Virus record (IMG/VR): IMGVR_UViG_3300043788_000114
Coordinates: 32,001 to 96,000 of that record
Strand: one strand, 5' to 3'
Source of the DNA: a virus
Length of the DNA stretch: 64,000 nucleotides
The notes below the pieces were generated by a model. It searched no databases, was not told the DNA's origin, and saw nothing but the letters and a program-made list of their open reading frames with translations. The position numbers and the translations under genes were made by a program. The stretch's first letter is position 1. Each line of letters begins with the position of its first letter. Positions 8,189-61,439 of this stretch are shown here, one piece after another.

Positions 8189-8262
8189 TGTTCTTTTTAT
8201 GTGTTTTCACCATAGGGAATCGGTGTAGAATGGCGCTGTGCCGTCCGGGAGCGAGCGCCGAG

Positions 8263-9036: not shown

Positions 9037-9146
9037 GTCGCTCCTTTCAGCGATGAGGTGAGAATCGAGCAGCCACGCTCGACACCCTCAATTCTATCAC
9101 CGAGTTGCGAGGAATGCGCGTCCGGGAGCGAGCATGGAGAAAAATC

Positions 9147-13993: not shown

Positions 13994-16777
13994 ATGCCCG
14001 ACCCTCAGCACAAACTCGTCAAGGTAGACGACTCGATCATCAAGTTTCCGGGTGACATGCCCGACGCTGATGTGGCTGCGGTCATCAAGAAATTTACTTC
14101 CTCTCCGGACTACAAAAAGCAGACACACACCAAAAACCAGATGCCATCGGGGATCGCGACGGAGGAGTCTGAGCACAAAAGACTCACCGGCAATGTTCCG
14201 ACCGTCACGCCGGACTGGAACACGGTGCGTCGGGCCGTCTACAAGGCCACAGAGCCCACTCTCCAGAACCCGAATACCAAGCCGGTCGACAACAGCGTAA
14301 AAGCGAACGTGGACGCCGCGTGGAACGCTGGAGCGAACGCAGCGAACGTGGGAGGAAACATCGCCAAGCGCGCGGGGCGCGTGATCTTTGGCGCGGTGGA
14401 CATGGCTCCGCAGATGTTCTCGATCCTGTCGAAGCTGGGATCGCCGGACGACAAGGTTTCACAGCAGGCCGAGACGGACTTGCTCAACTTCCATCCGGGC
14501 GCACAGATCGCGGACCGGCTGAAAGAGGCTGTCCACGACTGGCGGAAGTCGAAGAGCCTTGCGGCAGAGAACGCGTTGGGGGATGTGCTTGGATTCTTCC
14601 TGCTCGACAAAGCAGGAAAGGTTCTGCCGGAAGAGAGGATCAAACAACTCAACGCGGAAGGCGTGGTGCTTCCTCCGGAGGCAAAGCCAAAAGCTCCAGC
14701 ATCGATGCCGGGACAGCCACCGACGATTGAGGGAACATTTGAGCGCGCCACGCCGAAGCAGGTTGTGCCGGTCGAAGCGGCTGCGAAGCAGACCAGAAAC
14801 ACGCCGCCCAATCTGGAGGATGTGAAGGCGGCGGCGGAGAAACTCAAGCTGCCTGAGACGAATCCTCCAGCCGCGCCGCCGTCACTCGCCGACATCAAAG
14901 CCAAGGCAGAAGCGGTAAAGGCATCCAAGCCGGAGATCGCGCCGAAGCCTGCACCGCAGCCAGTAGCGACTCAACCTGTCGCAGCGCCGCCCAAAGTCGA
15001 AACTCCCGCACCGCAACCATCCACTGCTGTTCCTCCAGAACCGCCGAAAGCCGAAGCACCGCCAGCGCCAAAAGAGGAGCCTAAAACTACCAAGTACAAA
15101 TACGGCAACACACAAGCCGACATCCCGCAAGACTCCGACGCAGGTAAAGCTCTCGCGACCGCCCGCACCCAGATCGACAAGAACGACCTGATGCCGTCAA
15201 CTAACACGACAGATGGAAGCGGTCTCGAAGAGAACGCGCACATCACTGTGCGCTATGGAATCGACGGCGAGGACACGGCAGGGATCAAAGCGTATTTGGA
15301 AAAGCAGGCACCGTTTGAGGCCACATTGGGCAAGACGACTGCCTTCCCGCCAAGCGAGCACAGCGACGGTGGAGCGCCTATCGTTGTGAACATCGAATCA
15401 CCAGAACTGCACAGGATGGAGAAGGAGATCGATGAGCACGGCAACTTTGTTGACCGTTCGTTCCCGGAGTACAAGCCACACGTCACCTTGGGATATGTGA
15501 AGCCGGAGGCTGCGCAAAAGTATGTGGGCATGAACGGGATGGAAGGGAAAAAGTTCACCGTCAACTCCGTCTCGATCAGCAACAAAGATGGGTCTATCGA
15601 GGAAGTGCCGCTCAAGGGCACGCAAACACTGGAAAATGCGGACCTCAAGCAGGTGTACAAAGCACCCCCAGCGAGCGACATCCAACTTGCCGATGCGTGG
15701 AGGAGACTGGGAGATGTAAAGAACCAACTGGCTCAACTACCCCGCCCATACGATCCAAAACCGGACGCCACGCCGGAGCAGATCGAAAAGTGGAAAGCGG
15801 ATTACAAATCGTGGGCGGAGAAAGCGGAACCGTGGCTCCAGCAGTACACCCAAGCCACTCAGCAGATTGAGGACTTGAAGAACAGAGGTATCGGAGAAAT
15901 CCGGCTACTGCCGGACAAGTCCAGAATCCTTTACCTGAACCGCGCAGGATTGAACACGCTCTACACCGGCATGGCAGGAGAAGCGCGACCGGGCTACACG
16001 CTGAGCGGCGTGAGTCTTGACCCGCACACCGTGAAGTCGATCATCGGCAACCTGATGATCCTCAAACCACCACTGCACGAGGAATTGACGGACCTGATGC
16101 TTCGTGGGATGGACAAGAAAGGTGTAGTGATCGCCGCGATCCCGCGCAAGGGCGACTCGATCCGTGAAGCGGTCTCCACGTTGCGCGAAGAATTGAATCA
16201 TGGCTGGCAGAACACCGTCGCTGACCAGATGGGGAATCATCTTCCCAAGGAAAAGTTTGCGGAGTTGAACGAGGTGATTCCGGAGGGGATGAAGAGCCAT
16301 CTCAGGATCAACTACCCGGAGATTACCGACGACGGCAGCGAGTTGATGAATCGCAGGCGGGTGCGCGAGGCAAGTGCTAAGATGCTATCCGAGGCTCCGC
16401 AAAAGCTCGGGATCACAGAAGACGAAGCTGCCGCGTATCTGTTCCAGTATTTCACCGCGCTCGAAGAACAGCACGGGGAAAAAGCTCTGGACAAATTGCT
16501 CCACATCACCGTACTCGCAAAGGAGATCAAGGATGACTACTTCCGAGCAATCGACCGAGACACCGGAAAGCAAGCAGGTGGAAGAGGTGTGGGAAGCCTT
16601 CAAGACGAAGGGCCTCGCGGGGCTCCGGGAACTGATGCACAAGCGGGACGAGGAGTACCAGAAGGCGAAGGAGCAGCCGCAAAGCAAGTGAAAGTTAAGG
16701 ACCCGGAAGGTTACATCCACATCTTCCCGGATGAGAAGTCGGCATCGGCCTTTCGTGAGGCTGCGGGGATCAAATGA
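13994..16777 (+). CDS. Polyvalent virion-associated protein with 2H phosphoesterase (Acb1-like) domain
   Basis: Two HxT motifs, AHITVRYG (about 15239) and YKPHVTLGY (about 15479); degenerate zincin-like EELNH segment later. Confidence 0.7.
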   Translation: MPDPQHKLVKVDDSIIKFPGDMPDADVAAVIKKFTSSPDYKKQTHTKNQMPSGIATEESEHKRLTGNVPTVTPDWNTVRRAVYKATEPTLQNPNTKPVDNSVKANVDAAWNAGANAANVGGNIAKRAGRVIFGAVDMAPQMFSILSKLGSPDDKVSQQAETDLLNFHPGAQIADRLKEAVHDWRKSKSLAAENALGDVLGFFLLDKAGKVLPEERIKQLNAEGVVLPPEAKPKAPASMPGQPPTIEGTFERATPKQVVPVEAAAKQTRNTPPNLEDVKAAAEKLKLPETNPPAAPPSLADIKAKAEAVKASKPEIAPKPAPQPVATQPVAAPPKVETPAPQPSTAVPPEPPKAEAPPAPKEEPKTTKYKYGNTQADIPQDSDAGKALATARTQIDKNDLMPSTNTTDGSGLEENAHITVRYGIDGEDTAGIKAYLEKQAPFEATLGKTTAFPPSEHSDGGAPIVVNIESPELHRMEKEIDEHGNFVDRSFPEYKPHVTLGYVKPEAAQKYVGMNGMEGKKFTVNSVSISNKDGSIEEVPLKGTQTLENADLKQVYKAPPASDIQLADAWRRLGDVKNQLAQLPRPYDPKPDATPEQIEKWKADYKSWAEKAEPWLQQYTQATQQIEDLKNRGIGEIRLLPDKSRILYLNRAGLNTLYTGMAGEARPGYTLSGVSLDPHTVKSIIGNLMILKPPLHEELTDLMLRGMDKKGVVIAAIPRKGDSIREAVSTLREELNHGWQNTVADQMGNHLPKEKFAELNEVIPEGMKSHLRINYPEITDDGSELMNRRRVREASAKMLSEAPQKLGITEDEAAAYLFQYFTALEEQHGEKALDKLLHITVLAKEIKDDYFRAIDRDTGKQAGGRGVGSLQDEGPRGAPGTDAQAGRGVPEGEGAAAKQVKVKDPEGYIHIFPDEKSASAFREAAGIK

Positions 16778-28455: not shown

Positions 28456-28484
28456 TTGACAGGATTTCTGGACCGTGAGAGGAT
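28456..28484 (+). promoter_or_regulatory. Sigma70-like promoter of tRNA array 1
   Basis: TTGACA-17 nt-GAGGAT (weak -10), 7 nt before leader GTG. Confidence 0.6.
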
Positions 28485-28491
28485 TTGAACC

Positions 28492-28560
28492 GTGAAGACT
28501 TTGTGCCTCAGTTCGCTCTCCTCGTATAGCTCATTACTGAGCGGCAGCGGGGGTTCGTGA
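28492..28560 (+). CDS. Attenuator leader peptide 1 (MKTLCLSSLSSYSSLLSGSGGS)
   Basis: 14 consecutive Leu/Cys/Ser/Tyr codons; followed by antiterminator/terminator and Leu/Cys/Ser/Tyr tRNAs. Confidence 0.8.
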   Translation: MKTLCLSSLSSYSSLLSGSGGS

Positions 28561-28589
28561 ACTGAGTCCAGAGTGGAATTCAGTGAAGC

Positions 28590-28622
28590 GGCCTCCGAGA
28601 AATCGGGGGCTTTTTAGTTTTT
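28590..28622 (+). terminator. Attenuator terminator 1
   Basis: GCCTCCGA-GAAA-TCGGGGGC then TTTTTAGTTTTT. Confidence 0.85.
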
Positions 28623-28624
28623 GC

Positions 28625-29561: not shown

Positions 29562-30404
29562 ATGAGGTTTCCGATGACACCCCAAGAGCAAAGTGTACCA
29601 GCGCCAACGAAGTGGTGCCAGAAGCATCTACACGAAATCTCAATATCTACGAAAAGATGCCAAGAATGCCGGAAGGCGTATTTTCGGAAATACAGAACGC
29701 TTAACAGAGAGCACCTAAATTCTCTTGATCGAGAACGGTATCGAAAAAAACACGAAGGCCAACTTCGAAAGTATAATGGCTCTCCGGGCGGTATCGCCAG
29801 AGCGACCAAATCACGTCGCGAGGCTCTCGATAAGTATTACTCCAATCCAAAGATTTGCAAAAATTGCGGAGGCCCAATAGTCGTCAAGGATGGCGAGAAG
29901 ATTCCGCAAGCAAGGAAGCGAACCTTTTGCACACGGCGGTGCGCTGCCATTTTTAACAATCATTTACGGAAAAAAGAACGAGCGTGCAAGACCTGCGGGG
30001 GAGCAGTACGCAGAACAAGCAAGAGAATGCGTAACTACTGCGACGACTGCTTAAATGTGAAACTCCTTGCGATTACTGGAAAAATATCGAAACGTGCGTT
30101 ATTTACACGGAGAAATGGGTACCAATCGGCACGGTCGCAAATCCGAAGACACGCAGAGACGGTGTTCAATCGCTCCGGAAAGAAGAAGGTCTGTGCCATT
30201 TGCGGGTATAGCCTGTACGTTGAAATCGCTCATTTGCGAGCGGTGGCCGATTTTTCTGAGGACGCGCTCATTGAAGAGATCAACGCGGTAGGTAACTTAA
30301 TAGCCTTTTGCGCCAATCATCATTGGGAATTTGACAACGATAAACTTGTCGAGGATAATGTAACGGCGGAGTGGACTGGAGATGGTTCCAGCTTGGTCTC
30401 ATAA
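29562..30404 (+). CDS. HNH endonuclease with Zn fingers
   Basis: Several CxxC; CAICGY...EIAH...NLIAFCANHHWEFD; 3' end overlaps tRNA-Met. Confidence 0.8.
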   Translation: MRFPMTPQEQSVPAPTKWCQKHLHEISISTKRCQECRKAYFRKYRTLNREHLNSLDRERYRKKHEGQLRKYNGSPGGIARATKSRREALDKYYSNPKICKNCGGPIVVKDGEKIPQARKRTFCTRRCAAIFNNHLRKKERACKTCGGAVRRTSKRMRNYCDDCLNVKLLAITGKISKRALFTRRNGYQSARSQIRRHAETVFNRSGKKKVCAICGYSLYVEIAHLRAVADFSEDALIEEINAVGNLIAFCANHHWEFDNDKLVEDNVTAEWTGDGSSLVS

Positions 30405-30759: not shown

Positions 30760-31225
30760 TGGCGCGTAAGCGCTGAGTGGAGGCCGGGGGCCGCAAGGCA
30801 CTGGGTCCGTTCTCGGACGTAAACCGAGTGGTGGAGGCGGCGGCAACGCCGCCCCTAGTTTTCGAGTACGCATGTAGAAGGTGATGGAGTTTGATTTCGG
30901 ACGTGGGTTCAACTCCCACCGGCTCCACCAAGAAGCACTTGAACGAGAAGCGCCGACTTACGATCATGAACACAACGTCTCTGTTTTCGGCTAACTCAAA
31001 AAAGCGAAGCTCGTTGGCTGTCGCTCAATGGTTCGAGTGTTTCTTTGTGGGGCCGTCACGGTTTCGACGGAATTAGAGGACATCACGCAGTTCATGCCGG
31101 ATGCTGTGGCCCACGAAACGGGACAACAGAAAACTAGGTGCAGAACCATTTGCACTGCCAATGGCTGCTTAAACACCAGTCATTCGAGGGTGGCCGCAAT
31201 ACTCGTCAAAGAACCATGCGGCAAC
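30760..31225 (+). ncRNA. ssrA: Circularly permuted (two-piece) tmRNA; outer ends approximate
   Basis: 3' tRNA-like end GGTTCAACTCCCACCGGCTCCACCA (to 30930) lies upstream of 5' end GGGGCCG..GGTTTCGAC (31049); G3:U70 pair; tag frame AEPFALPMAA* at 31140-31172. Confidence 0.85.
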
Positions 31226-31232
31226 AAATTCT

Positions 31233-31388
31233 ATGCCCGAGAATCGGAGAAAAAAGCAGCGGAGAAGGAAAGTCCTGCGACAAATCGAGCGGCGCAGGCA
31301 GTTCCAGCGAGTCAATGAAATCCTGTTGCGCTCCGCTTTCGGGGTAGAATGGAAAAAGTACCGCCAGCGTGGAATCGCGGTGCCGTAA
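31233..31388 (+). CDS. Small Arg-rich protein (not in ORF track)
   Basis: MPENRRKKQRRRKVLRQIERRRQFQRVNEILLRSAFGVEWKKYRQRGIAVP. Confidence 0.4.
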   Translation: MPENRRKKQRRRKVLRQIERRRQFQRVNEILLRSAFGVEWKKYRQRGIAVP

Positions 31389-33974: not shown

Positions 33975-34931
33975 ATGTTTGAGCCTAAAACACTTGCCGA
34001 AGCTATTCGCTACTACAGCGATGAGCAGACGTGTATCGACGTGGTTGCAGGTCTCCGCTGGCCAGATGGCAAGCCGGTATGCCCGAAGTGCTGGACGGCT
34101 GAGGGCGAGCGCAAGCACTACTGGCTCAAGACCCAAAAGCGGTGGAAGTGCTATGCCTGCCGCAAGCAATTCTCGGTCAAGGTGAACTCGATTTTCGAGG
34201 ATTCGGCCCTCAAACTGTCGGATTGGCTTATTGGCCTCTGGATGCTTGTGAACTGCAAGAACGGCGTGAGTAGCTATGAGCTATCGCGGGCCACGGGGAT
34301 CGCTCAGAAGTCAGCGTGGTTCGTTCTACAGCGCCTTCGTTACATCCTCAAGGCAGTTGACCATCGGCCCTTGGGAACGCCGGGGCCGGTCGAGGTAGAC
34401 GAATGCTATCTCGGCCCCGACGCACGCACGATGCACGCGGACAGGCGAGCCAAGTTGCAACTGGCGACAAACGGCTACGCGAAGAAAACGGCTGTGATCG
34501 GTCTGCTCGATCGCAACACGCGGCAGGTCCGAGCTGAGGTCTTACCGGAAGTCACACGCGATGTGCTGCAAGCGCGGATTCTCAAGCATTGCGGCAAGGG
34601 AACGACCGTGTACACCGATAGCCACGCCGGATACGACAACATGGATTCGCAGCGTTTCGTCCACGAAACCGTGAATCACATGATGGAGCATGTACGCGGC
34701 GATGTTTCGACGCAAGCGATTGAGAATTTCTGGTCGTGCCTCAAGAGAACACTGACCGGGACGTACATCGCGGTCGAGCCTTATCACTTGGACCTGTACC
34801 TGAATGAGCAGGTCTACCGCTTCAACAATCGCGTGAATAAAGACGATGGTCAGCGTTTCAGAAAGGCACTGAGCATGATCGGGGATCGCAGACTGACTTG
34901 GAACCGGCTTACCGGGAAGGAGGGGGCCTGA
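33975..34931 (+). CDS. IS1595 (ISXO2-like) transposase
   Basis: RWP...CPKC...CYACRKQFSV Zn ribbon; VEVDECY, VYTD, VNH, IENFWS.LKR, YLNE..YRFN. Confidence 0.95.
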   Translation: MFEPKTLAEAIRYYSDEQTCIDVVAGLRWPDGKPVCPKCWTAEGERKHYWLKTQKRWKCYACRKQFSVKVNSIFEDSALKLSDWLIGLWMLVNCKNGVSSYELSRATGIAQKSAWFVLQRLRYILKAVDHRPLGTPGPVEVDECYLGPDARTMHADRRAKLQLATNGYAKKTAVIGLLDRNTRQVRAEVLPEVTRDVLQARILKHCGKGTTVYTDSHAGYDNMDSQRFVHETVNHMMEHVRGDVSTQAIENFWSCLKRTLTGTYIAVEPYHLDLYLNEQVYRFNNRVNKDDGQRFRKALSMIGDRRLTWNRLTGKEGA

Positions 34932-36557: not shown

Positions 36558-36586
36558 TTGACATTCTGCGCCGCCCGATGTACCGT
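36558..36586 (+). promoter_or_regulatory. Sigma70-like promoter of tRNA array 2
   Basis: TTGACA-17 nt-TACCGT, 7 nt before leader GTG. Confidence 0.75.
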
Positions 36587-36593
36587 CAAAAAC

Positions 36594-36680
36594 GTGATGA
36601 CTCGATTCCATAGCGACTTCCCAGCAACAGCGGCCACGCAGCCGCAAGGTAATCGCTCGCCTGAAATGGGGTCTCAATAG
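36594..36680 (+). CDS. Attenuator leader peptide 2 (MMTRFHSDFPATAATQPQGNRSPEMGSQ)
   Basis: Contains codons read by all 12 tRNAs of array 2. Confidence 0.8.
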   Translation: MMTRFHSDFPATAATQPQGNRSPEMGSQ

Positions 36681-36713
36681 GATTTTTCATCGCAATGGAG
36701 CGAAGAAAACTAC

Positions 36714-36755
36714 GAGGCCCCGGACACCGAAAGGTTTTCGGGGCTTCTGCTTTGT
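36714..36755 (+). terminator. Attenuator terminator 2
   Basis: GAGGCCCCGGA...TTCGGGGCTTC then TGCTTTGT (interrupted U tract). Confidence 0.7.
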
Positions 36756-36808
36756 GCGGATGAATAAAGGCGATAGCTTGAGTGGTATTTTGATGTTAAA
36801 CTCTGTGC

Positions 36809-37420
36809 ATGGCTGCAATCGATATGGCTGTGTATATGGCAGAGCGCCGGAAGAATCGGCGCGATAAACTGATTGCGATGTCGGGCGGGAGATGCATCAA
36901 GTGTAATTCAACCGACGATCTCAATTTTGACCACAAAGACCCGAAGGATCGCTCATTCCGATTGACTGGTAAGGCGCTGGATGGTTCGTGGGAAAAGATT
37001 CTTAAAGAGTGGCGAAAATGCCAGTTGCTTTGTAGGGTTTGTCACCTTCGGAAGACAAAAGAAAATGACGAGTACGGCGAACCGCCGAACAAGGGCGTTT
37101 CGAAATGGGGAGAAGTTCTTCCTGAGCACGGATGTGAAGCGGCTTACGCGCATGGTTGCAGATGCGATGAATGCTGTAAAGCGAGATACGAAGCGCGAGT
37201 TCGTCGCGGCGAATTGAAAGGTATCCGTGGACCACGAGGAGCAAATAATCCGAAGGGCGTCATCAAACACGGAACGCGCTCCGGATACCAAGCGGAGTTG
37301 AGACAAGGTTTAACTGCTTGCGATGAATGCAGAAAAGCGAACGCGGAAGAGACGCGGCGGCGCAAGCAAAATGAAAAGTTTGTTCCGAGGGAACCAGACG
37401 GTACGGTAGCGCACTGTTAA
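36809..37420 (+). CDS. HNH endonuclease
   Basis: GGRCIKC...LNFDHKDP...KCQLLCRVCH; HG...Y..GC.C..C repeats; overlaps tRNA-Asn. Confidence 0.85.
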   Translation: MAAIDMAVYMAERRKNRRDKLIAMSGGRCIKCNSTDDLNFDHKDPKDRSFRLTGKALDGSWEKILKEWRKCQLLCRVCHLRKTKENDEYGEPPNKGVSKWGEVLPEHGCEAAYAHGCRCDECCKARYEARVRRGELKGIRGPRGANNPKGVIKHGTRSGYQAELRQGLTACDECRKANAEETRRRKQNEKFVPREPDGTVAHC

Positions 37421-38094: not shown

Positions 38095-38171
38095 GGTATG
38101 GTACGGCCCGGTGATGTGAGCCGCGGCGGGGCATGGCAAGGCTTGGTATGGTCAGGTAGGGTGTGGCATGG
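38095..38171 (+). repeat. GGNNN pentanucleotide-periodic tract
   Basis: GG at exact 5-nt spacing in 14 of 16 units. Confidence 0.8.
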
Positions 38172-38716
38172 GCAGTTTAATGCGTAGATCGGTGCTTCAG
38201 TTGAACGCTTCACTAGAAGCGATTCGCATTATTTCTGCAAAGAGGGCTTTGACTTTGTTGACTAAGGGCAAGGCCCTCACTGAGGTTTCGACGGGGATTG
38301 AGATTTATCCCGGCGTGTTCTTGCCTAGCGTGATTAGGCTTCGGCACTACGCGAGGGTTCCGCATAAGAGGCCGATTCCTTCGAGGAAGAATATCTTTGT
38401 CCGCGATGGGAACCGTTGTCTTTACTGTGGGGCCAAGGGACCGAAGGTTACTCTTGAACTTGAGCATGTTATCCCGAGGTCAAGAGGAGGACAAGGGTCG
38501 TGGGACAACTTGGTTTCGGCGTGCCACGAGTGTAACCAGAAGAAGGGTGATCGTACACCACAGGAAGCTGGAATGACTCTGATTCATCGTCCTTTGCCAG
38601 CGACGGTACACACAAACCGTTTCGTGCTTAAGCAACTTGGGGAAGAAATTTCTGAGTGGAGTCCATTTTTGTGGCAGGACAACAAGGGCGACACTCGCTT
38701 TCAGTTTGTGCATTAG
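38168..38716 (+). CDS. HNH endonuclease (McrA-like)
   Basis: VLQLNAS...PSVIRL...RKNIFVRDGNRCLYCG...EHVIPRSRGG..SWDNLVSACHECNQKKG. Confidence 0.9.
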   Translation: MGSLMRRSVLQLNASLEAIRIISAKRALTLLTKGKALTEVSTGIEIYPGVFLPSVIRLRHYARVPHKRPIPSRKNIFVRDGNRCLYCGAKGPKVTLELEHVIPRSRGGQGSWDNLVSACHECNQKKGDRTPQEAGMTLIHRPLPATVHTNRFVLKQLGEEISEWSPFLWQDNKGDTRFQFVH

Positions 38717-39620: not shown

Positions 39621-40158
39621 TTTGTCGATGGTGAAGTTTACGGATACTTCTCTTCCAAAGAAAACCTCTGTGAGCGTTTGTTCCTCGACAAAGATTTGCG
39701 GTTGGTGTAGTTTCAGTTACTTCTTAATCAGCAGGTCACGGGTTCGAGTCCCGTCAAGCAGCAATGCTTGTAGCTCAGTTGGTAGAGCAGCCGAGGCGAA
39801 AGCCAGTACCCTGAAGCGCCTGTTCCGCCGCAATAAAGTTCTCCGGTAGTGAAGAGGACGGTTACTTCACTCGAAATGAAAAACAACCGTTTTCGCTTGT
39901 TCTCCGGGGATTAAGTATGAGCCGTAGTGGTCGTAAGGGTTACTTCTTGGTTCGATTCCAAGGTTGGAAGCAATTCCTACCTGCCGATTGGTCGGCTACC
40001 CCTTGCAAATGTTCTCGGCTCTCTAAGTTCGGGTTGGTGTAGGAAACAGTTACTTCGCCTGTGGAGCGAGTAGTTCGGGTTCGAATCCCGGCGTCTTCTT
40101 CGGAAGATGTAGTGTAATGGCAGCACGCTTACGTCACTGTTCCGTCTGTTCCGCCCGA
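39621..40158 (+). ncRNA. Five tandem Y-RNA-like (YrlA-like) RNAs: 39621-39692, 39696-39833, 39840-39910, 39919-40021, 40029-40158
   Basis: Each has paired ends and shared TRGTG, GWTACTTC and TGTTC motifs; units 2 and 5 (4 partly) hold T-arm, capped acceptor-like stem, D-arm; adjacent to Ro60 gene. Confidence 0.75.
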
Positions 40159-40220: not shown

Positions 40221-41645
40221 ATGCGTACAAACGTAGCAGAAAAGAAGGCGCTCATCTACACGCACGAGGGCGCAGTGGCGGTGTTCATCAACCCCGTCGA
40301 TCAGCTTCGCCGCTCTGTCATGGCGAACATGTTATGGGAGGACGAGTTCTACGAGGATGGCCAGTCCATTGCAAAGCGGATTCAGGAAACGACCGCCGAA
40401 ATCCTCAAGCAGAAGAACGGCGCGCAGACCGTGGCGGACATTGCGTTTGAGGCCCGCACGAAGATGAAGCTGCGTCACGTCCCGTTGCTTCTATTGGTTT
40501 CGCTCATCCGTGCGAAGACCGATCAGACACGGAAGGTTGTGGCGGAAGCCATCGCGCGTGTGGTCCAGCGGCCAGACGAGATGGGTGAATTGATCTCGCT
40601 CTACTGGAAGCTGAATGACAAGCGTGCCATGTTGCCGCACCAGATGAAGATCGGCCTCGCGGCGGCGTTCCAGAAGTTCGATGCCTACTCGCTCGGAAAG
40701 TGGAACTCGGATGCGGCGGCGGTGAAGCTGCGCGACGTCCTGTTCTTGACGCACGCGAAGCCGAAGGATCAGGCACAGGCAGAACTCTGGAAGAAGTTAG
40801 CGGAGAAGACGCTGGAGTCGCCGGATACGTGGGAGGTGGCTCTCAGCGGCGGTGCTGACAAGAAGGAGGCGTTCACTCGTCTGCTCGCCGAGGAAAAGCT
40901 GGGTGCGCTGGCGCTGCTCCGAAATCTGCGGAATATGCAGCAGGCCGGTGTCGACGTTGAGGCGATCCGCAAGGGTCTCGGAACGATGAAGACAGAGCGT
41001 GTTCTTCCCTTCCGCTTCATCACGGCGGCAAAGTACGCTCCGCAGTTGGAGCCTCAGCTTGAGCAGGCCATGTTCCGGTGCCTCGCAAGTCAGGAGAAGT
41101 TGACGGGCAAGACAGTCTTGATCGTCGATTGCTCGGGATCGATGCATGGCGGAATCTCTGCCAAATCCGAACTGGACCGTCTCAGCGCGGCTGCTGCATT
41201 GGCTATGCTGGTGCGTGAGGTCTGCGAGGATGTTGCCGTGTACGCGACGGCGGGTGACGATGGTCGGCGCATCCACGCGACGATGCTGGTTCCTCCGCGT
41301 CGTGGTTTCGGTTTGCGTGATCTGCTTTCCTACGAGAGCACGAGCCGCAAGATCGGCGGAGGTGGAATCTTCTTGAAGCAGGTGATTGAGTACGTCCGCA
41401 AGGAAGAGAAGGACACGGCGGACAGGATCATCGTCATCACCGACGAACAGGACTGCGATCTGGTAAACAAGCCAGCAAGCGCCAAGCCATTCGGGAAGAA
41501 CAACTACCTTATCAACGTGGCTAGCTTCAAGAACGGCATCGGCTACGGAGAGTGGGTCCACATCGACGGCTGGAGTGAGGCGATCTTGGATTACATCCAG
41601 CAGTACGAGCGGTTGCAGGAAACCGGCAATGAGATTTCTGCCTAA
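40221..41645 (+). CDS. rsr: Ro60/TROVE domain ribonucleoprotein (Rsr-like)
   Basis: THEGA, EFYEDG, LRHVPL, DAYSLGKW, LRDVLFLTHAKP, TWEVALS, ALLRNLRNM, LPFRF, vWA DCSGSM and ITDEQ. Confidence 0.9.
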   Translation: MRTNVAEKKALIYTHEGAVAVFINPVDQLRRSVMANMLWEDEFYEDGQSIAKRIQETTAEILKQKNGAQTVADIAFEARTKMKLRHVPLLLLVSLIRAKTDQTRKVVAEAIARVVQRPDEMGELISLYWKLNDKRAMLPHQMKIGLAAAFQKFDAYSLGKWNSDAAAVKLRDVLFLTHAKPKDQAQAELWKKLAEKTLESPDTWEVALSGGADKKEAFTRLLAEEKLGALALLRNLRNMQQAGVDVEAIRKGLGTMKTERVLPFRFITAAKYAPQLEPQLEQAMFRCLASQEKLTGKTVLIVDCSGSMHGGISAKSELDRLSAAAALAMLVREVCEDVAVYATAGDDGRRIHATMLVPPRRGFGLRDLLSYESTSRKIGGGGIFLKQVIEYVRKEEKDTADRIIVITDEQDCDLVNKPASAKPFGKNNYLINVASFKNGIGYGEWVHIDGWSEAILDYIQQYERLQETGNEISA

Positions 41646-42461: not shown

Positions 42462-42611
42462 AGCCGTGTTTCCCCCTGCATCTATTTTCTCATCGACGAT
42501 TTTTGTAAACTGCGAAATCGCCTGTATTCATGCGGTCTCCGACGTGTAAGTAATTGACAGTACAGTGTCGAAATAAATCTCTTGACAAGAATTTCCCATT
42601 TTGCGGTTAGA

Positions 42612-42971
42612 ATGTTCTGGGGGAGAAAATTGCTCATCATTCTGGCGCTTGTATGGATTCACTTTGTGTCGGATTTTCTGTTGCAGTCCGACAAGATGGC
42701 GATCAATAAATCGAAGAGTTGGAAGTGGCTCGGCATCCATTGCGTAACGTACTCGACGCCGTTCCTGATCTTCGGCTGGCGCTTCGCGCTGGTCACCCTT
42801 GCTTTCCATTTCGTGACGGATGCGATCACGTCGCGTGGCACAGCGTACCTGTGGAAGCGGGAGATGCGACACTGGTTCTTCTCGCTCATCGGCTTCGATC
42901 AGGCGATCCACCTGAGCACGCTGATTTTGACCTACCATTTTTTGCTTGCAAAGAATCTGGAATGGGTGTAG
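42612..42971 (+). CDS. DUF3307 family membrane protein
   Basis: HFVSDFLLQSDKMAINKS...HC..Y...HFVTD...GFDQAIH. Confidence 0.8.
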   Translation: MFWGRKLLIILALVWIHFVSDFLLQSDKMAINKSKSWKWLGIHCVTYSTPFLIFGWRFALVTLAFHFVTDAITSRGTAYLWKREMRHWFFSLIGFDQAIHLSTLILTYHFLLAKNLEWV

Positions 42972-42974
42972 GCT
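42946..42974 (+). promoter_or_regulatory. Sigma70-like promoter of tRNA array 3
   Basis: TTGCAA-17 nt-TAGGCT, 7 nt before leader GTG. Confidence 0.7.
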
Positions 42975-42981
42975 GATTTTC

Positions 42982-43068
42982 GTGCAGATAAGGACCAAAT
43001 CCGTGAACACGAGAATGACCGGGAAGCGGGTCATTTGGGGAATCGTGTCCGGGGGTTTGGGAACCTAA
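42982..43068 (+). CDS. Attenuator leader peptide 3 (MQIRTKSVNTRMTGKRVIWGIVSGGLGT)
   Basis: Contains codons read by all 12 tRNAs of array 3, including ATA, AGG, AGA, CGG, TGG. Confidence 0.8.
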   Translation: MQIRTKSVNTRMTGKRVIWGIVSGGLGT

Positions 43069-43096
43069 TCTGCAACAAGATTCGGAACTCAAAGCA

Positions 43097-43122
43097 CCCC
43101 GGCTCAGGCCGGGGATTTTTTT
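43097..43122 (+). terminator. Attenuator terminator 3
   Basis: CCCCGGC-TCAG-GCCGGGG then ATTTTTTT. Confidence 0.9.
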
Positions 43123-43135
43123 GGTCTTTGAAAAA

Positions 43136-43210
43136 GCGGGTTTAAGCTAGTTGGCAAACTGCCTGCCTCCAAATCAGGACTCAGGGGTTCGATTCCTCTA
43201 ACCCGCGCCA
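43136..43210 (+). tRNA. tRNA-Trp(CCA)
   Basis: Loop CTCCAAA, G73 CCA. Confidence 0.9.
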
Positions 43211-43211
43211 T

Positions 43212-43287
43212 CGCGACGTAGCTCAGGTGGTGGAGCGCCGATCTCATAAGTCGGAGGGCGAGGCTTCGAGTGCCTCCGTCGCGACCA
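43212..43287 (+). tRNA. tRNA-Met(CAT) (elongator Met or Ile2)
   Basis: Loop CTCATAA, CCA. Confidence 0.85.
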
Positions 43288-43293
43288 AGTTTT

Positions 43294-43388
43294 GCCGGAA
43301 TCCTCGGGCGAGGCGCTGGGATTTATAACCCCGGTTGTTGTCGGTAGATTGCCGATGTGCGAGGGATCATACCCCTCTTCCGGCCCCA
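43294..43388 (+). tRNA. Atypical tRNA with TAT anticodon (nominally Ile), long variable arm
   Basis: GCCGGAA/TTCCGGC acceptor, loop TTTATAA, V arm TCGGTA-GAT-TGCCGA, C73 CCA. Confidence 0.7.
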
Positions 43389-43390
43389 GT

Positions 43391-43467
43391 GAGCGCGTCG
43401 TATAGCGGCTGATTATACCTGCCTCTTAAGCAGGCTGACGCTGGTTCAAATCCAGCCGCGCTCACCA
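43391..43467 (+). tRNA. tRNA-Lys(CTT)
   Basis: Loop CTCTTAA, CCA. Confidence 0.9.
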
Positions 43468-43474
43468 AAGTTTT

Positions 43475-43560
43475 GGGATCGTACTCGAATTGGATGCAGA
43501 GACCTGACTTTTAATCAGCGGGGAAACCCAATGGGGGTTCGAGTCCCCCCGGTCCCACCA
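43475..43560 (+). tRNA. tRNA-Lys(TTT) with extra variable stem
   Basis: Loop CTTTTAA, GGG-GAAA-CCC insert, CCA. Confidence 0.85.
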
Positions 43561-43564
43561 AGTT

Positions 43565-43641
43565 GCTCCCGTATCGGCGCTGTCTTCTAAACAGCAGGCC
43601 GTAGACGGATGACGCGGGTTCGACTCCTGCCGGGAGCGCCA
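43565..43641 (+). tRNA. tRNA-Arg(TCT), no canonical D-arm
   Basis: Acceptor, anticodon (CTTCTAA) and T arms intact; only 7 nt between acceptor and anticodon stems. Confidence 0.75.
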
Positions 43642-43647
43642 TGTTTT

Positions 43648-43725
43648 GCCGCTGTACCTCACCCGCCTCCTAAGCGGGATTCGAGTAACTGGATGATGCC
43701 GGTTCAACTCCGGCCAGCGGCACCA
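43648..43725 (+). tRNA. tRNA-Arg(CCT), no canonical D-arm
   Basis: Loop CTCCTAA; same architecture. Confidence 0.75.
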
Positions 43726-43730
43726 GTTTT

Positions 43731-43807
43731 GCTGCCGTACCGGGTCGCCCTCCGAAGGCGAATACCGTAGATGGAGAAGGCAGGTTCGAGTCCTGTCGGC
43801 AGCGCCA
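43731..43807 (+). tRNA. tRNA-Arg(CCG), no canonical D-arm
   Basis: Loop CTCCGAA; same architecture. Confidence 0.75.
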
Positions 43808-43811
43808 GTTT

Positions 43812-43889
43812 GCAGGGTTAACTCAGTCCGCTCAGAGTGCCTCTCCTACAAAGAGGAAGCCGCAGGTTGAAATCCTGCACCCTGCACCA
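43812..43889 (+). tRNA. tRNA-Val(TAC), C33
   Basis: Loop CCTACAA, CCA. Confidence 0.85.
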
Positions 43890-43894
43890 AGTTT

Positions 43895-43969
43895 GCCGGT
43901 CAAGCACATGCGGATGTGTACTCCCTTGGTAAGGGAGAGGCAGAGAGTTCGATCCTCTCGACCGGCCCA
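43895..43969 (+). tRNA. tRNA-Thr(GGT)
   Basis: Loop TTGGTAA; 3' end one nt short of NCCA. Confidence 0.85.
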
Positions 43970-43973
43970 GTTT

Positions 43974-44048
43974 GCCGATGTAGCTCAATGGGAGAGCATT
44001 CCCTTGATAAGGGAAAGGTCAGTGGATCGGTACCACTCATCGGCACCA
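43974..44048 (+). tRNA. tRNA-Ile(GAT)
   Basis: Loop TTGATAA, CCA. Confidence 0.9.
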
Positions 44049-44065
44049 AGTGTAGAATTGCAGGC

Positions 44066-44392
44066 ATGGCTCAATGGGAAGTGACTATACGCGCAAACAT
44101 TCTCATCACAGACGATGATGATGACGAAAACCAGTTTGCTGAGCAGTACACTTTCATCTGGTCCGCGCCCGACTTCATTTCGGCAGTGATGTCAGTCCAG
44201 CAGAAGCTCGACACTTTGAACGAGCGCACGAAGAAGAAGTGGGAAGAGACTGCTCGCAAAGCACGATTCATGGAAGAATACAACATCGTCGGGTTGATCG
44301 AAACCGATCACGTGCTATTCGGCGACAAGTGGATAGATGAGTTCGTAGAACGAGGCGTAATAGATCGCAATTATGCCGAAGATGAAAGTTGA
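44066..44392 (+). CDS. Acidic hypothetical protein
   Basis: ATG after tRNA-Ile and TAGAAT; ORF ends at tRNA-Gly. Confidence 0.55.
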   Translation: MAQWEVTIRANILITDDDDDENQFAEQYTFIWSAPDFISAVMSVQQKLDTLNERTKKKWEETARKARFMEEYNIVGLIETDHVLFGDKWIDEFVERGVIDRNYAEDES

Positions 44393-44467
44393 GCGGGTGT
44401 CGTCCAACGGTAGGGCCACAGCCTTCCAAGCTGTTGACGAGGAGTTCGAATCTCCCCACCCGCTCCA
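44393..44467 (+). tRNA. tRNA-Gly(TCC)
   Basis: Loop CTTCCAA, U73 CCA. Confidence 0.9.
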
Positions 44468-44538
44468 TCACTCTCCGGAATAAAATCTGGAATAATTTGT
44501 GCTCGGAATTTCGATTTCTCCCGTGCTAAACTGCGCTC

Positions 44539-45177
44539 ATGTCTCTGAGCCTTGTCCCAATGCCGCTTCCGCCGCAGCCGTCTTTCCTGAATCCCAAGCG
44601 CAAACGACTCTGGGAAAAGTACAACGGCAAATGCCACTGGTGCGGATGCGAAACGCGGTTGGTGAATGACACAGCGCCGGATAAGGCAACCATCGATCAC
44701 ATCATCCCGCGCTACAAAGGCGGCACAAACGATCCCGCAAATCTGGTAAATTCCTGCAATCTTTGCAACAACCGGCGAAACTACGAAGATCATTTCGGAC
44801 TTGCCGAAGGCACCTTGTTAGGGAAGTACAAGGGAGGCCAGAGCAACACGGAACGCAGGGCGGCGCGGCGCGCGCAACTGAAGCACATCGCTCTAACCGG
44901 TGACGAAAAACGGGCGATCCTCGAAAGACTCGACGCTGGGAAGACACAACCACAACCACAGCCGCAAGCACCGATTCAGACGCGTCCGCCAGCGGCCCGC
45001 TACAGCACGGAGGAGGTCCTTCGCGAGCAGCGCGATCAGGCGCAGAAACGCATCGTCGAATTGCAGAAGGAATTGGATCGAGTGCAGGCCATCGCGGCGA
45101 CGCAGGAAAAAGAATTGAAGTCGATCACTGTGGTGGGGCTTATCCGGAAGCGGATCGCCGAGTGGCTTTTGTCTTGA
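44539..45177 (+). CDS. HNH endonuclease with C-terminal coiled coil
   Basis: KCHWCG...TIDHIIPRYKGG...NLVNSCNLCNNRR. Confidence 0.85.
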   Translation: MSLSLVPMPLPPQPSFLNPKRKRLWEKYNGKCHWCGCETRLVNDTAPDKATIDHIIPRYKGGTNDPANLVNSCNLCNNRRNYEDHFGLAEGTLLGKYKGGQSNTERRAARRAQLKHIALTGDEKRAILERLDAGKTQPQPQPQAPIQTRPPAARYSTEEVLREQRDQAQKRIVELQKELDRVQAIAATQEKELKSITVVGLIRKRIAEWLLS

Positions 45178-60708: not shown

Positions 60709-61439
60709 AGCCGGAGGAATCAATGACGGATGTACTCGAACTGGAAGATGCGCTCGCAGGAACTCACATCAAGAGTGCTTGCGAGAAAGCCGCCGCGATG
60801 GCACAGACAGCGAACAAGCCTGTGCATTTTGAATTCAACGGCACTCATGTAACTGCGCAACCGGGGGAGACAGCGGAGACGCTGGTAAACCGCTGGCAGG
60901 ATGATTTTGATGCGGCGGCGAGAGCGTGGCGCGAATCTCCAGAACGGAAGATCGAAGAGGAGAAGCGAGCAGCGGAGGAGAAAGCTGCACGCGAAGCGCA
61001 CATAACGGAAGCGGCTTCCACCGAAGCTGAGATGCGTGAAGCGAAAGTGCCGTGGCCGAAAACCAAGGAACAACTTACGGAGTACATCGAATCGCTCGTG
61101 AGCAAACAGCACGACTATGGAACCTGCGTTTACGCGATGAGCATGGCCGCAGAGGCCGCGTTTAACTACGTCTCTAATTGTCTCGGCGTGACAGGATTCC
61201 AAGCATCCTGCGCCGATCTTGACTTCATCAAGAGGACGCGCGGCATAGATGGTCCATTCATGCTCATCAAAGGCGAGGACATGCTATACCCGCAATACAA
61301 CCTAGTGGACAATCTACTCGAAGCGATGAAAGAGTGGAAGCCTTGGGCAAAAGAGGAAGCGGAGAAAAAGCTGAGCGAGAATACCTCCGCACATCCCGAT
61401 GTAATCGCGCATTGGAAAGCGCTGGCTTCGCAAAAGTAA
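60705..61439 (+). CDS. Hypothetical phage protein
   Basis: HDYGT..YA...G.TGFQA...LYPQY...HPDV..HW. Confidence 0.6.
   Translation: MKPEESMTDVLELEDALAGTHIKSACEKAAAMAQTANKPVHFEFNGTHVTAQPGETAETLVNRWQDDFDAAARAWRESPERKIEEEKRAAEEKAAREAHITEAASTEAEMREAKVPWPKTKEQLTEYIESLVSKQHDYGTCVYAMSMAAEAAFNYVSNCLGVTGFQASCADLDFIKRTRGIDGPFMLIKGEDMLYPQYNLVDNLLEAMKEWKPWAKEEAEKKLSENTSAHPDVIAHWKALASQK

Follow-up and report, generated by a model that had tools for sequence, protein, structure and literature searches.

Phage tRNA genes are usually seen as compensation for codon usage or as spares against tRNA-cleaving host defenses, and we know of little on how their expression is controlled. The locus analyzed here raises this question in a specific form: what decides whether the 12 tRNA genes of array 3 of an uncultured soil phage (genome 138.5 kb) are transcribed? 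The array lies in the window, by which we mean the whole stretch of 64,000 nt presented above, and it is preceded by a short open reading frame (ORF) and a hairpin. The initial annotation had read this arrangement as an attenuator, and computation bears the reading out through codon match, sister layouts, conservation, co-variation, and a folding model. We consider it likely that these 12 genes are under ribosome-mediated transcription attenuation as in trp, his, and ilv, and that the phage probably makes array 3 tRNAs only when ribosomes read the corresponding codons slowly.

Layout of the leader and of array 3

The leader (Table 1) comprises a short ORF that begins at a usable start codon, located 3' of a promoter-like TTGCAA-17-TAGGCT element and 5' of the tRNA genes, and a predicted intrinsic terminator, which a separate scan also identified, between that ORF and the tRNA-Trp gene. 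Position 42946, which the initial annotation gave as the start, is the -35 box and holds no start codon. Since the GTG lies only 7 nt past the -10 box, the leader mRNA is probably leaderless or nearly so. Elements of the form TTGCAA/TTGCAC-17-TAnnnT were also identified 5' of homologous leaders in 3 relatives (L030, L032, and L034), and a regex scan of the whole genome found the promoter layout with a short ORF at all 3 tRNA-array leaders. An alternative sigma-70-like promoter would give a 5' UTR of ~18 nt with a weak AGG 9 nt 5' of the GTG, and it carries little weight because 2 such sites occur in 10 kb against 4.3 expected. A GTG start on a probably leaderless mRNA counts against the attenuator reading; starts of this kind work well in certain bacterial groups only. 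The leader ORFs of relatives begin with ATG, with an SD-like GGAG (L004) or AGGA (L006) recognized by eye 5' of the start.

ARAGORN and Rfam identified 8 canonical tRNAs in 43136-44467. In each of the 4 odd genes the acceptor stem and the T arm are present, the CCA is encoded, and there is an anticodon stem-loop with TAT, TCT, CCT, or CCG; only 7 nt occupy the place of the D arm, and the variable regions are 18-25 nt long. They were missed by ARAGORN (default settings) and by Rfam RF00005, so they do not class as canonical tRNAs; 43564-43638 matched tRNA-Sec only and scored 31.1 bits, where the gathering score is 47. These 4 of the 12 array 3 "tRNAs" are noncanonical and may not decode, which counts against the attenuator reading. 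Their codons are indeed present in the leader, as had been noted, but the conclusion drawn from this, that they are functional decoders, is weak, because the same codons are inherited from relatives with canonical tRNAs, which carry these counterparts at equal array positions.

Table 1. Features of the array 3 locus and of the two sister leaders, with positions in the window
Feature	Position	Strand	Description
DUF3307 gene	42582-42971		Upstream gene; predicted terminator 125 nt past its stop
Alternative sigma-70-like promoter	42927..42956	+	TTGACC-18-AAGAAT, 9/12 matches
Leader layout	42946-43135	+	Predicted promoter, 28-codon ORF, G-rich segment, strong predicted terminator
Predicted leader promoter	42946..42974	+	-35 TTGCAA 42946-42951, 17-nt spacer, -10 TAGGCT 42969-42974
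Leader ORF	42982..43068	+	GTG 42982, 28 codons plus TAA 43066-43068, peptide VQIRTKSVNTRMTGKRVIWGIVSGGLGT; codons 1-14: GTG CAG ATA AGG ACC AAA TCC GTG AAC ACG AGA ATG ACC GGG; codons 15-28: AAG CGG GTC ATT TGG GGA ATC GTG TCC GGG GGT TTG GGA ACC
Long 1:2 hairpin (predicted)	42983..43074	+	Spans whole ORF; region 1 ~42983-43020, region 2 ~43029-43074
G-rich segment	43049-43071	+	Can pair with terminator 5' arm
Predicted antiterminator (2:3)	43049..43102	+	Takes 6/7 nt of terminator 5' arm; CCGGGG 43049-43054 with CCCCGG 43097-43102, TTTGGG 43056-43061 with CTCAAA 43088-43093, AATCT 43067-43071 with AGATT 43078-43082
Predicted intrinsic terminator (3:4)	43097..43122	+	CCCCGGC-TCAG-GCCGGGG (43097-43114) then ATTTTTTT; 7 G-C pairs, loop of 4
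Conserved GGTCTTTGAAAAA / CTCTTTGACAAT-like motif	43123..43135	+	Between terminator and first tRNA
tRNA array 3	43136..44467	+	12 tRNA genes and 108-aa ORF
Trp(CCA)	43136-43210	+	First tRNA, starts 13 nt past terminator
Met(CAT)	43212-43287	+	Array 3
Odd Ile(TAT)-like	43294-43388	+	Array 3, noncanonical
Lys(CTT)	43391-43467	+	Array 3
Lys(TTT)	43475-43560	+	Array 3
Odd Arg(TCT)	43565-43641	+	Array 3, noncanonical
Odd Arg(CCT)	43648-43725	+	Array 3, noncanonical
Odd Arg(CCG)	43731-43807	+	Array 3, noncanonical
Val(TAC)	43812-43889	+	Array 3
Thr(GGT)	43895-43968	+	Array 3
Ile(GAT)	43974-44048	+	Array 3
108-aa ORF	44066-44392	+	Inside array 3
Gly(TCC)	44393-44467	+	Array 3
Sister leader 1	28456..28624	+	TTGACA-17-GAGGAT-7-GTG 28492, stop TGA 28558-28560 (VKTLCLSSLSSYSSLLSGSGGS), predicted terminator 28590-28611
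Sister leader 2	36558..36760	+	TTGACA-17-TACCGT-7-GTG 36594, stop TAG 36678-36680 (VMTRFHSDFPATAATQPQGNRSPEMGSQ), imperfect predicted terminator hairpin from 36714

Folding of the leader RNA and its conservation

The minimum free energy (MFE) of 42960-43135 was -72.1 kcal/mol; its 200 shuffles gave -51.7 ± 4.1, with 0 as good (z = -5.0). The antiterminator pairs proposed in the initial annotation are exactly the helix that ViennaRNA returned once the 5' half of the ORF was masked, and this antiterminator formed in the MFE fold for A sites from codon 1 to codon 14. On a leader free of ribosomes, the model folds the long 1:2 hairpin, which may act as a pause hairpin. We simulated co-transcriptional folding with a mask for the ribosome footprint and read the pairing of the terminator 5' arm for each A-site codon; the arm was paired at ≥0.8 for codons 1-19, at 0.0-0.2 for codons 21-24, and at 0.54 at the stop. 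The modeled array 3 leader showed classical 1:2, 2:3, 3:4 behavior: antiterminator and terminator are mutually exclusive, and either the 1:2 hairpin or a ribosome at the ORF end prevents the antiterminator from forming. The switch of this leader exceeded 98/100 dinucleotide shuffles, 2/100 being as good. The switch of sister leader 2 was weak in the model (0.97 to 0.83).

Homologous or analogous leaders were identified in 9 IMG/VR records (1 partial, 2 identical), the homologous ones being nonindependent observations. Seven aligned homologous leaders had a mean identity of 65%; they retain the ORF and its frame, and gaps inside the ORF were only 3, 6, or 9 columns long. Compensatory changes were found in 4/7 pairs of the terminator stem among 7 homologues. 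In the antiterminator, 8 pairs were kept and 1 was compensatory. The stop codon adjoins region 2 in 6/6 relatives. The T/G columns of the GGTCTTTGAAAAA / CTCTTTGACAAT-like motif were invariant in 7/7 aligned leaders, and the motif also follows the leader 1 terminator of L012. Further, modeled sequestration was higher with an early ribosome than with a ribosome at the stop in 17/17 leaders.

These data bear on an alternative in which the ORF is translated and relevant and no hairpin switch exists: uncoupling of ribosome and polymerase would let Rho or RNases act, or the leader would tune the processing or stability of the tRNA precursor. It fits leader 1 of L017, which matches its array (9/9 tRNAs, P = 6e-4) with no terminator within 130 nt of the stop, and the second leader of L005, whose hairpin has no U tract. 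It also fits the finding that equilibrium favors the terminator at every ribosome position (P ≥ 0.91), from which it follows that the switch has to be kinetic; kinetic switching is the textbook view of trp too. However, under simple uncoupling slow decoding would reduce tRNA output, which makes little regulatory sense. A canonical terminator, found automatically, has its arm 19-34 nt past the stop in 15/18 leaders, the sequence around the stop can base-pair with the terminator 5' arm and is conserved and partly covarying, and the modeled switch beat at least 94/100 shuffles in 15/17 leaders (shuffles matched it in 57/100 cases for leader 2 of L017 and in 12/100 for leader 2 of L012). We regard an explanation of this kind as unlikely.

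Codon content of the leaders and of their arrays

Everything listed in the initial annotation is in the sequence at the positions it stated, and all 12 codons it had named, one for each tRNA of array 3, are present in frame in the leader ORF. Under one fixed wobble rule, 12/12 tRNAs have a cognate codon in the leader, and 19/27 codons are cognate. Among 135,524 stop-free 27-codon windows from the six frames of the 138.5-kb genome, 16 reached 12/12 (P = 1.2e-4) and 7 combined 12/12 with 19/27; with canonical tRNAs only, 8/8 were covered (P = 0.0042; off-diagonal P 0.40-1.0). The match is specific to the frame, the other forward frames covering 3 and 5 of the 12 tRNAs and the reverse frames 5, 6, and 2. 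A cognate codon for each of the 12 falls within codons 3-19; the sensing window would extend from codon 2 to codon 19, and the G-rich region 2 makes up the last 9 codons. The 8/27 noncognate codons (CAG, TCC twice, AAC, ACG, GTC, GGT, and TTG) count against an attenuator. Because each tRNA is sampled by 1-3 codons, without the runs seen in his and phe, sensitivity to a single tRNA may be low. Describing the leader as made of rare codons suits ATA, AGG, and AGA (6-7 per 1000 in the long ORFs of the phage, from which codon frequencies were taken) but not AAG, ATC, and GGA, which are common.

The presumed regulatory codons are cognate to what the leader's own array supplies. Sister leader 1 heads an array of Leu (3), Cys, Ser (4), and Tyr tRNAs and covers 9/9 (P = 5.6e-4), and sister leader 2 heads an array of Asn, Gln (2), Gly, Thr (2), His, Ala, Phe, Pro (2), and Arg and covers 12/12 (P = 2.0e-3). 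In the 3 × 3 matrix of leaders and arrays, own arrays scored 9/9, 12/12, and 12/12 and foreign arrays 1-6; the product of the 3 own-array P values is ~1e-10, or 3e-8 with canonical tRNAs only. For Arg, Thr, and Gly, which are split between arrays 2 and 3, own-array codons made up 15/19, and for Arg 5/5 (hand count).

In two further phages, L012 and L017, the tRNAs are divided among arrays in another way, and the leaders match that division. A 41-codon leader of L012 covers 26/26 tRNAs (P = 7e-4) and its second leader 7/7 (P = 1.4e-3), while leader 2 of L017 covers 19/23 (P = 2e-3); cross-comparisons of L012 and L017 leaders with foreign arrays were not significant. The cultured Caulobacter phage CcrColossus has 2 leaders covering 11/11 (P = 0.003) and 10/11 (P = 0.04). 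Among close relatives, the presence or absence of a single tRNA does not track single leader codons cleanly, which counts against the attenuator reading: ACC codons persist in L006 and L031 although no Thr(GGT) was detected in the array concerned, and in L004, L005, and L006 Arg(CCT) is present and AGG is absent from the leader.

If the leaders were functional micropeptides, or the terminated leader RNA of ~140 nt a trans-acting sRNA, the codon match would be a by-product. The peptide core ITRMTKRVIWGVV is well conserved among close relatives, the leader RNA is unusually structured, and both attenuator-derived sRNAs and active leader peptides are described for Sinorhizobium in the available text of two reports (PMC7298713, PMC7968998). 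Against this, the 3 leaders of one genome encode unrelated peptides, each composed of own-array amino acids, the unrelated leaders of L012, L017, and CcrColossus likewise match their own arrays, and the Arg match extends to the choice among synonymous codons. None of these matches would be expected from a peptide or an sRNA; such a function is quite unlikely to be the explanation and could exist in addition.

Very improbable is a translation-independent, T-box-like mode in which tRNAs bind codon-like leader triplets directly and stabilize the antiterminator. T-box leaders use codon-anticodon contact, and the leader contains a triplet that could pair with the anticodon of every array member; however, these triplets count in one frame only, which is open and has a start codon and a conserved end, gaps among homologues are multiples of three, one RNA would need to bind 12 to 26 different tRNAs, and 42946-43135 had no Rfam match, T-box included, at the gathering threshold or at E ≤ 5. 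Coincidence, in the form of a plain terminator that belongs to the upstream DUF3307 gene and lies next to a chance ORF where short ORFs are common (77 of ≥20 aa in 4 kb), is scarcely credible, being contradicted by the codon-match P values for the array 3 leader alone and for the 3 leaders together, the frame specificity, the L012 and L017 matches, the homologue alignment, and the retention of the ORF in relatives without the DUF3307 gene, where the leader follows a Ro60-like gene or a tRNA directly.

Proposed circuit and relation to known systems

If the leader is an attenuator, transcription would start at ~42981, and the 5'-terminal GTG ORF would be translated as RNA polymerase advances, with its first ~19 codons presenting at least 1 codon per tRNA of the array. 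Under fast decoding, the ribosome would reach the G-rich ORF end and the stop and cover region 2 (43049-43071), the terminator would fold, and transcription would end 13 nt before tRNA-Trp. Should the ribosome pause at one of the sampled codons because its charged tRNA is scarce, region 2 would stay free and would pair with the terminator 5' arm ahead of synthesis of the 3' arm; polymerase would then enter the array, and the missing tRNAs would be supplied. With no ribosome, the long 1:2 hairpin would form and the terminator would work. Decoding capacity for exactly those codons that array 3 serves would in this way come under negative feedback, and 2 sister circuits would serve the other 2 arrays. 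We lean slightly toward a broader proposal, a modular, self-correcting "decoding-capacity" circuit in which every block of tRNA genes has its own gating leader, where ribosomes test-read one codon per tRNA, the block being turned on when these codons are read slowly (e.g., when anticodon nucleases or phage-induced shut-off deplete tRNAs) and off once decoding is restored; the link to anticodon nucleases is speculation.

If true, a textbook leader-peptide mechanism would reach a new target class, tRNA arrays, with decoding speed feeding back directly on tRNA supply, and the sorting of phage tRNAs into blocks would be explained. The leaders would act as compact natural sensors that report on many tRNAs at once and could be used as programmable sensors of how available individual tRNAs are, and a leader-sampled codon would offer independent functional annotation, a tRNA-like gene so sampled being probably meant to decode. 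As the design recurs in differently organized phages and in CcrColossus, it may be a general feature of tRNA-rich phages, and the 2 leaders of this cultured phage make the circuit idea directly testable. Our literature search found no published account of trp-operon-style attenuation of tRNA genes.

The tRNA island of L017 also has an ORF, recognized by eye, that we take to be RtcB-like. It resembles in this the trn operon of Anabaena sp. PCC 7120, like the phage arrays a supernumerary tRNA array, which the available text of PMC8421152 describes as horizontally mobile, silent until translation is impaired, and co-regulated with rtcB. Its control, as given in the available text of PMC8421152 and PMC10272220, involves direct repeats over the -10 and the transcription start site and the RHH repressor TrcR, whereas leader-peptide attenuation is proposed for the phage arrays; in the available text of PMC8421152, "attenuat," "leader," and "terminator" occur 0 times. 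With T-box riboswitches the phage leaders would share antitermination by the state of specific tRNAs through codon-anticodon contact, but T-boxes bind a single uncharged tRNA directly, without a ribosome, and control synthetase or amino-acid genes.

In E. coli, the pheM leader peptide controls the aminoacyl-tRNA synthetase operon pheST, and both systems would place a translation component that handles the sensed tRNA under ribosome-mediated attenuation; the target of pheM/pheST is a protein enzyme that serves a single amino acid, whereas the phage leader would control an array of tRNA genes. Enterobacterial leader-peptide attenuators include trpL, hisL, leuL, and pheL and the multivalent leaders of thr (Thr and Ile) and ilvGMEDA (Ile, Leu, and Val), in which, as proposed for the phage, one leader senses several amino acids or tRNAs. 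The phage leaders resemble them in the short ORF right after the promoter that carries the regulatory codons, the mutually exclusive (in the phage, predicted) 1:2, 2:3, and 3:4 hairpins, the intrinsic terminator, also predicted in the phage, just before the regulated genes, and a stop placed so that the terminating ribosome would mask region 2. Unlike them, the phage leaders are phage-borne, occur in several copies per genome, are probably leaderless, partition synonymous codons (Arg) among themselves, and would sample 8-26 tRNA species with 1-3 codons each in place of runs for 1-3 amino acids. Since they would regulate tRNA genes, the product sensed, decoding capacity, would be the product made.

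Layout and codon content of leader 3

The sequence and coordinates of the initial annotation were all found as stated at leader 3, a 28-codon ORF ahead of tRNA array 3 (12 tRNAs), except for the meaning of position 42946, which had been taken as the start and marks the -35 hexamer rather than a start codon. In an unconstrained fold, the entire leader 3 ORF is taken up by one long hairpin (42983-43074), and the terminator forms 3' of it. The fold of 42960-43135 reached -72.1 kcal/mol vs -51.7 ± 4.1 kcal/mol in shuffles (z = -5.0), with 0 of 200 shuffles as stable.

Features of the tRNA island and its leaders (window coordinates unless a relative is named; coverage is the number of tRNAs of an array with a cognate codon in the leader)
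Feature	Position	Details
Leader 1	GTG 28492	VKTLCLSSLSSYSSLLSGSGGS; ahead of Leu x3, Cys, Ser x4, Tyr; coverage 9/9, P = 5.6e-4
HNH endonuclease genes (4)	29562-30404, 36809-37420, 38168-38716, 44539-45177	
Two-piece (permuted) tmRNA	30787-31263	Tag AEPFALPMAA
IS1595-family transposase	33975-34931	
Leader 2	GTG 36594	VMTRFHSDFPATAATQPQGNRSPEMGSQ; ahead of Asn, Gln x2, Gly, Thr x2, His, Ala, Phe, Pro x2, Arg; coverage 12/12, P = 2.0e-3
Ro60/TROVE + vWA protein gene	40221-41645	Between tRNA arrays 2 and 3
Leader 3 predicted promoter and ORF	-35 42946; -10 42969; GTG 42982; TAA 43066-43068	TTGCAA, 17 nt, TAGGCT, 7 nt, GTG, 28 codons, TAA
Leader 3 terminator	43097-43122	CCCCGGC-TCAG-GCCGGGG-ATTTTTTT; tRNA-Trp begins 43136
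CTCTTTGACAAT-like (TTTGACAAT-like) conserved motif	43123-43135; L012 ~4915-4926	Between U tract and first tRNA
Odd tRNA-like genes of array 3	43294-43388, 43565-43641, 43648-43725, 43731-43807	Anticodons TAT, TCT, CCT, CCG

We scored the codon match with a fixed decoding rule (G34 reads C/U; U34 reads A/G; C34 reads G; A34 reads U/C/A; CAT reads ATG; TAT reads ATA). The following tRNA rows were removed by hand before counting: tRNA-like modules near the Ro60-like gene (e.g., 40032-40101), the acceptor piece of the tmRNA (30836-30930), ARAGORN calls of low score that lacked a CCA end, and 2 distant single tRNAs in the relative L004. The proposed correspondence between leader codons and array 3 was borne out, with the 27 codons after GTG covering 12/12 tRNAs and 19 of the 27 being cognate. 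All 27-codon windows free of stops were taken from the six reading frames of the genome as the null (135,524 in total); 16 of them reached 12/12 (P = 1.2e-4), and 7, which may include shifted copies of leader 3, reached both values. The other 2 frames of the leader 3 DNA covered 3 and 5 tRNAs, and the 3 reverse frames covered 5, 6, and 2. The description of leader 3 as a rare-codon leader held in part: ATA, AGG, and AGA are minor codons (5.9-7.2 per 1000), whereas AAG, ATC, and GGA are common, as counted in 49 long phage ORFs.

Because 4 of the 12 array-3 genes are noncanonical, the test was repeated on canonical tRNAs only, defined as those accepted by ARAGORN at default settings or by Rfam at the gathering score. 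Leader 3 covered 8/8 of these (P = 0.0042), and 15/27 of its codons were cognate (P = 0.0002). In the 4 odd genes, the acceptor, anticodon, and T arms are normal and CCA is encoded, just ~7 nt stand in place of the D arm, and the variable region is 18-25 nt; canonical genes occupy their array positions in the relatives L004 and L005.

Leaders in the same genome, in relatives, and in differently organized phages

A genome-wide regular expression (-35/-10/start plus an ORF of 10-45 codons) returned ten sites, including all 3 leaders, and only these 3 combined the 17-nt spacer, the 7-nt gap, and a GTG start. When leaders were set against foreign arrays, coverage was 1-6, with off-diagonal P values of 0.40-1.0 (canonical sets). 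The leader-array match extends to synonymous codons. By hand count, Arg is encoded by CGA and CGC in leader 2 (Arg-ACG in array 2) and by AGG, AGA, and CGG in leader 3 (Arg-CCT, -TCT, and -CCG in array 3), and 15 of the 19 Arg, Thr, and Gly codons in the window leaders are read by the leader's own array. Neither the promoter plus short-ORF expression nor inspection by eye turned up a fourth leader serving the Asp/Glu tRNAs or the tmRNA.

The Ro60-like gene as a query returned 25 IMG/VR loci, among which L004, L005, and L006 (69%-81% identity) carry the same 3 arrays with homologous leaders. A degenerate leader pattern added five more records: L030 (incomplete), L031 and L033 (identical in sequence), L032, and L034. 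The array-3 leaders of these relatives all start with ATG, located 6-7 nt past the -10 box in L005 and L034 and preceded, by eye, by an SD-like GGAG or AGGA in L004 and L006. Mean identity in the seven-leader alignment was 65%, and gaps within the ORF were 3, 6, or 9 columns long. In the leader RNA, region 1 can pair with region 2 (1:2 hairpin), region 2 with region 3 (antiterminator), and region 3 with region 4 (terminator). The stop codon lies immediately 5' of the GGGGTCTG-like region 2 in the six relatives, and the CCAGACCCC-like region 3 pairs with region 2 and overlaps the 5' arm of the terminator. Compensatory changes were found at 4 of the 7 pairs of the terminator stem, and the eight predicted pairs of 2:3 showed one GC-to-AU exchange, in 3 sequences. 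Near codons 2-4, a CAGACC-like stretch was seen by eye that may act as region 1 by pairing with region 2. Co-variation of single tRNAs in the close relatives (Thr(GGT)/ACC, Ile(TAT)/ATA, Arg(CCT)/AGG) gave a mixed outcome and was unusable as evidence.

The conserved motif between the terminator and the first tRNA was present in 7/7 aligned array-3 leaders and also 3' of the leader-1 terminator in the more distant phage L012, and its sequence is similar to the -35 region in promoters of the phage itself. It was rejected as a second promoter, since inspection of the window by eye showed no -10 box at a suitable distance. Separately, at ~5190-5300 of L005, a promoter, a 7-nt gap, and a short ATG ORF (MLGSSYVKDILPQQNRDSRRTEKQLR) with no obvious codon match precede a tRNA with a CAT anticodon and a probable tmRNA region.

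In the more distant phages L012 and L017, tRNAs are sorted otherwise, and the leaders follow that sorting. Leader 1 of L012 (41 codons) covers 26/26 tRNAs of its array (P = 6.7e-4), with the first tRNA of L012, Thr(TGT), lying upstream of the leader, and leader 2 (MRILSSSLLLSSLSYLS...) covers 7/7 Leu/Ser/Tyr tRNAs (P = 1.4e-3). In L017, leader 1 (…SLSCTRLSSLSLSSLLWY) scores 9/9 on an array of Ser, Tyr, Leu x4, Trp, Cys, and Ser (P = 5.7e-4), and leader 2 reaches 19/23 (P = 1.9e-3). P values in the cross-comparisons were 0.65-0.98. The Trp and Cys codons thus move with their tRNAs. The L017 island also holds an ORF (8183-9385) that, by eye, resembles the RNA ligase RtcB.

CcrColossus, a cultured Caulobacter phage (NC_019406.1), has 2 unannotated short ORFs that are leaders ahead of tRNA clusters. 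The leader at 61264-61383 of the record covers 11/11 (P = 0.003), and that at 68148-68243 covers 10/11 (P = 0.04), with the terminator annotated at 68276-68301 of the record lying 3' of it. A third tRNA cluster, cluster 1 (Trp, Gly, Gly, Glu, Asp), lacks a leader and has only a plain promoter. CcrColossus is a tractable system in which to study such leaders.

In a generic scan, 152 ORFs located 5' of tRNA runs were scored across the 25 Ro60-query loci; known leaders ranked high, and both L012 leaders were picked up. The scan was blunt, with ORFs stretched to the farthest start and arrays merged across leaders; L005 leader 1 reached p_c = 0.057, L017 leader 1 fell outside the top 30, and several non-leader ORFs had p values of 0.004-0.05.

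Modeled folding switch

Equilibrium folding with a ribosome mask gave no switch, the terminator being favored at every ribosome position, and the decision must therefore be kinetic, the accepted view for trp attenuation as well. A co-transcriptional model was adopted for this reason, with the RNA ended before the 3' arm of the terminator and a ribosome footprint of 27 nt. The first version of the model let pairs enclose the ribosome, which is unphysical, and the second leaves out the RNA that the ribosome covers or has already passed. With the A site at codons 1-14, the minimum free energy structure of the first version was exactly the antiterminator helix of the initial annotation (43049-43102). 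In the second version, the pairing probability of the terminator 5' arm of leader 3 stayed at 0.8 or higher for codons 1-19, dropped to 0.5 at codon 20 and to 0.0-0.2 over codons 21-24, and stood at 0.54 at the stop. It was also 0.54 without a ribosome, because the 1:2 hairpin then holds region 2. A cognate codon for each of the 12 tRNAs falls in codons 3-19.

A switch as strong as that of leader 3 occurred in 2 of 100 dinucleotide shuffles. Across the modeled leaders, sequestration was greater early than at the stop in 17/17 and beat at least 94 of 100 shuffles in 15/17. The weak cases were the second leaders of this phage (WIN-2), L012, and L017. Leader 1 of L017 has no terminator within 130 nt of its stop, and the hairpin of L005 leader 2 has no U tract.

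Genome setting and published systems

The source IMG/VR phage record is 138.5 kb long and complete according to CheckV; the window spans its bases 32001-96000, and all tRNA genes of the phage lie inside the window at 28.6-44.5 kb. ARAGORN at default settings identified 29 tRNAs and a two-piece tmRNA, and a lower threshold added more. As a type, permuted tmRNA is characteristic of alphaproteobacteria along with a few other groups, and its presence here hints at the host of the phage. The tRNA island, in which genes for HNH endonucleases, an IS1595-type transposase, and Ro60/TROVE are interspersed, resembles a mosaic built from mobile insertions. Before the Ro60 gene lies a partial match to YrlA, a Y RNA-like RNA (39731-39791; 46.5 bits, below the gathering score of 69), and a tRNA-like module without CCA (40032-40101) lies near it; the gene and the YrlA-like match probably represent a phage Ro60 with its own Y RNA. 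Elsewhere in the window, a 927-aa protein (13994-16777) has a 2'-5' RNA ligase/Acb1-like domain (PF13563, E = 3.7e-10) and matches PF23474 at 26.6 bits, just below the cut-off of 27.

No close deposited phage was found by distant blastn with 42500-44600, which returned 8 records with tRNA-sized matches only, each at no more than 4% coverage. When the neighboring DUF3307 gene served as the query, 2 loci came back at 48% identity; both have a single tRNA(CTA) and lack an array. Among the 24 sequencing runs listed for the stretch, none was RNA, and the highest share for a DNA run was 0.36.

The codon match, the sister leaders, the relatives, and the modeled switch make attenuation, as initially proposed, the best explanation of leader 3, and we consider it likely that leader 3 is a ribosome-mediated attenuator of tRNA array 3. 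Its trigger could be host tRNA cleavage, shut-off, or plain demand. In the literature covered by our search, including passages of the attenuation papers PMC3082878 and PMC2965389 and of the Anabaena paper PMC8421152, no leader-peptide attenuator of tRNA genes was found. The closest published system found, the trn operon of Anabaena, is a supernumerary tRNA array induced by translational stress; in contrast to the control proposed for leader 3, its control consists of promoter repeats and the repressor TrcR (PMC8421152, PMC10272220). The mechanism of leader 3 would be of a known kind, attenuation, in a novel form.
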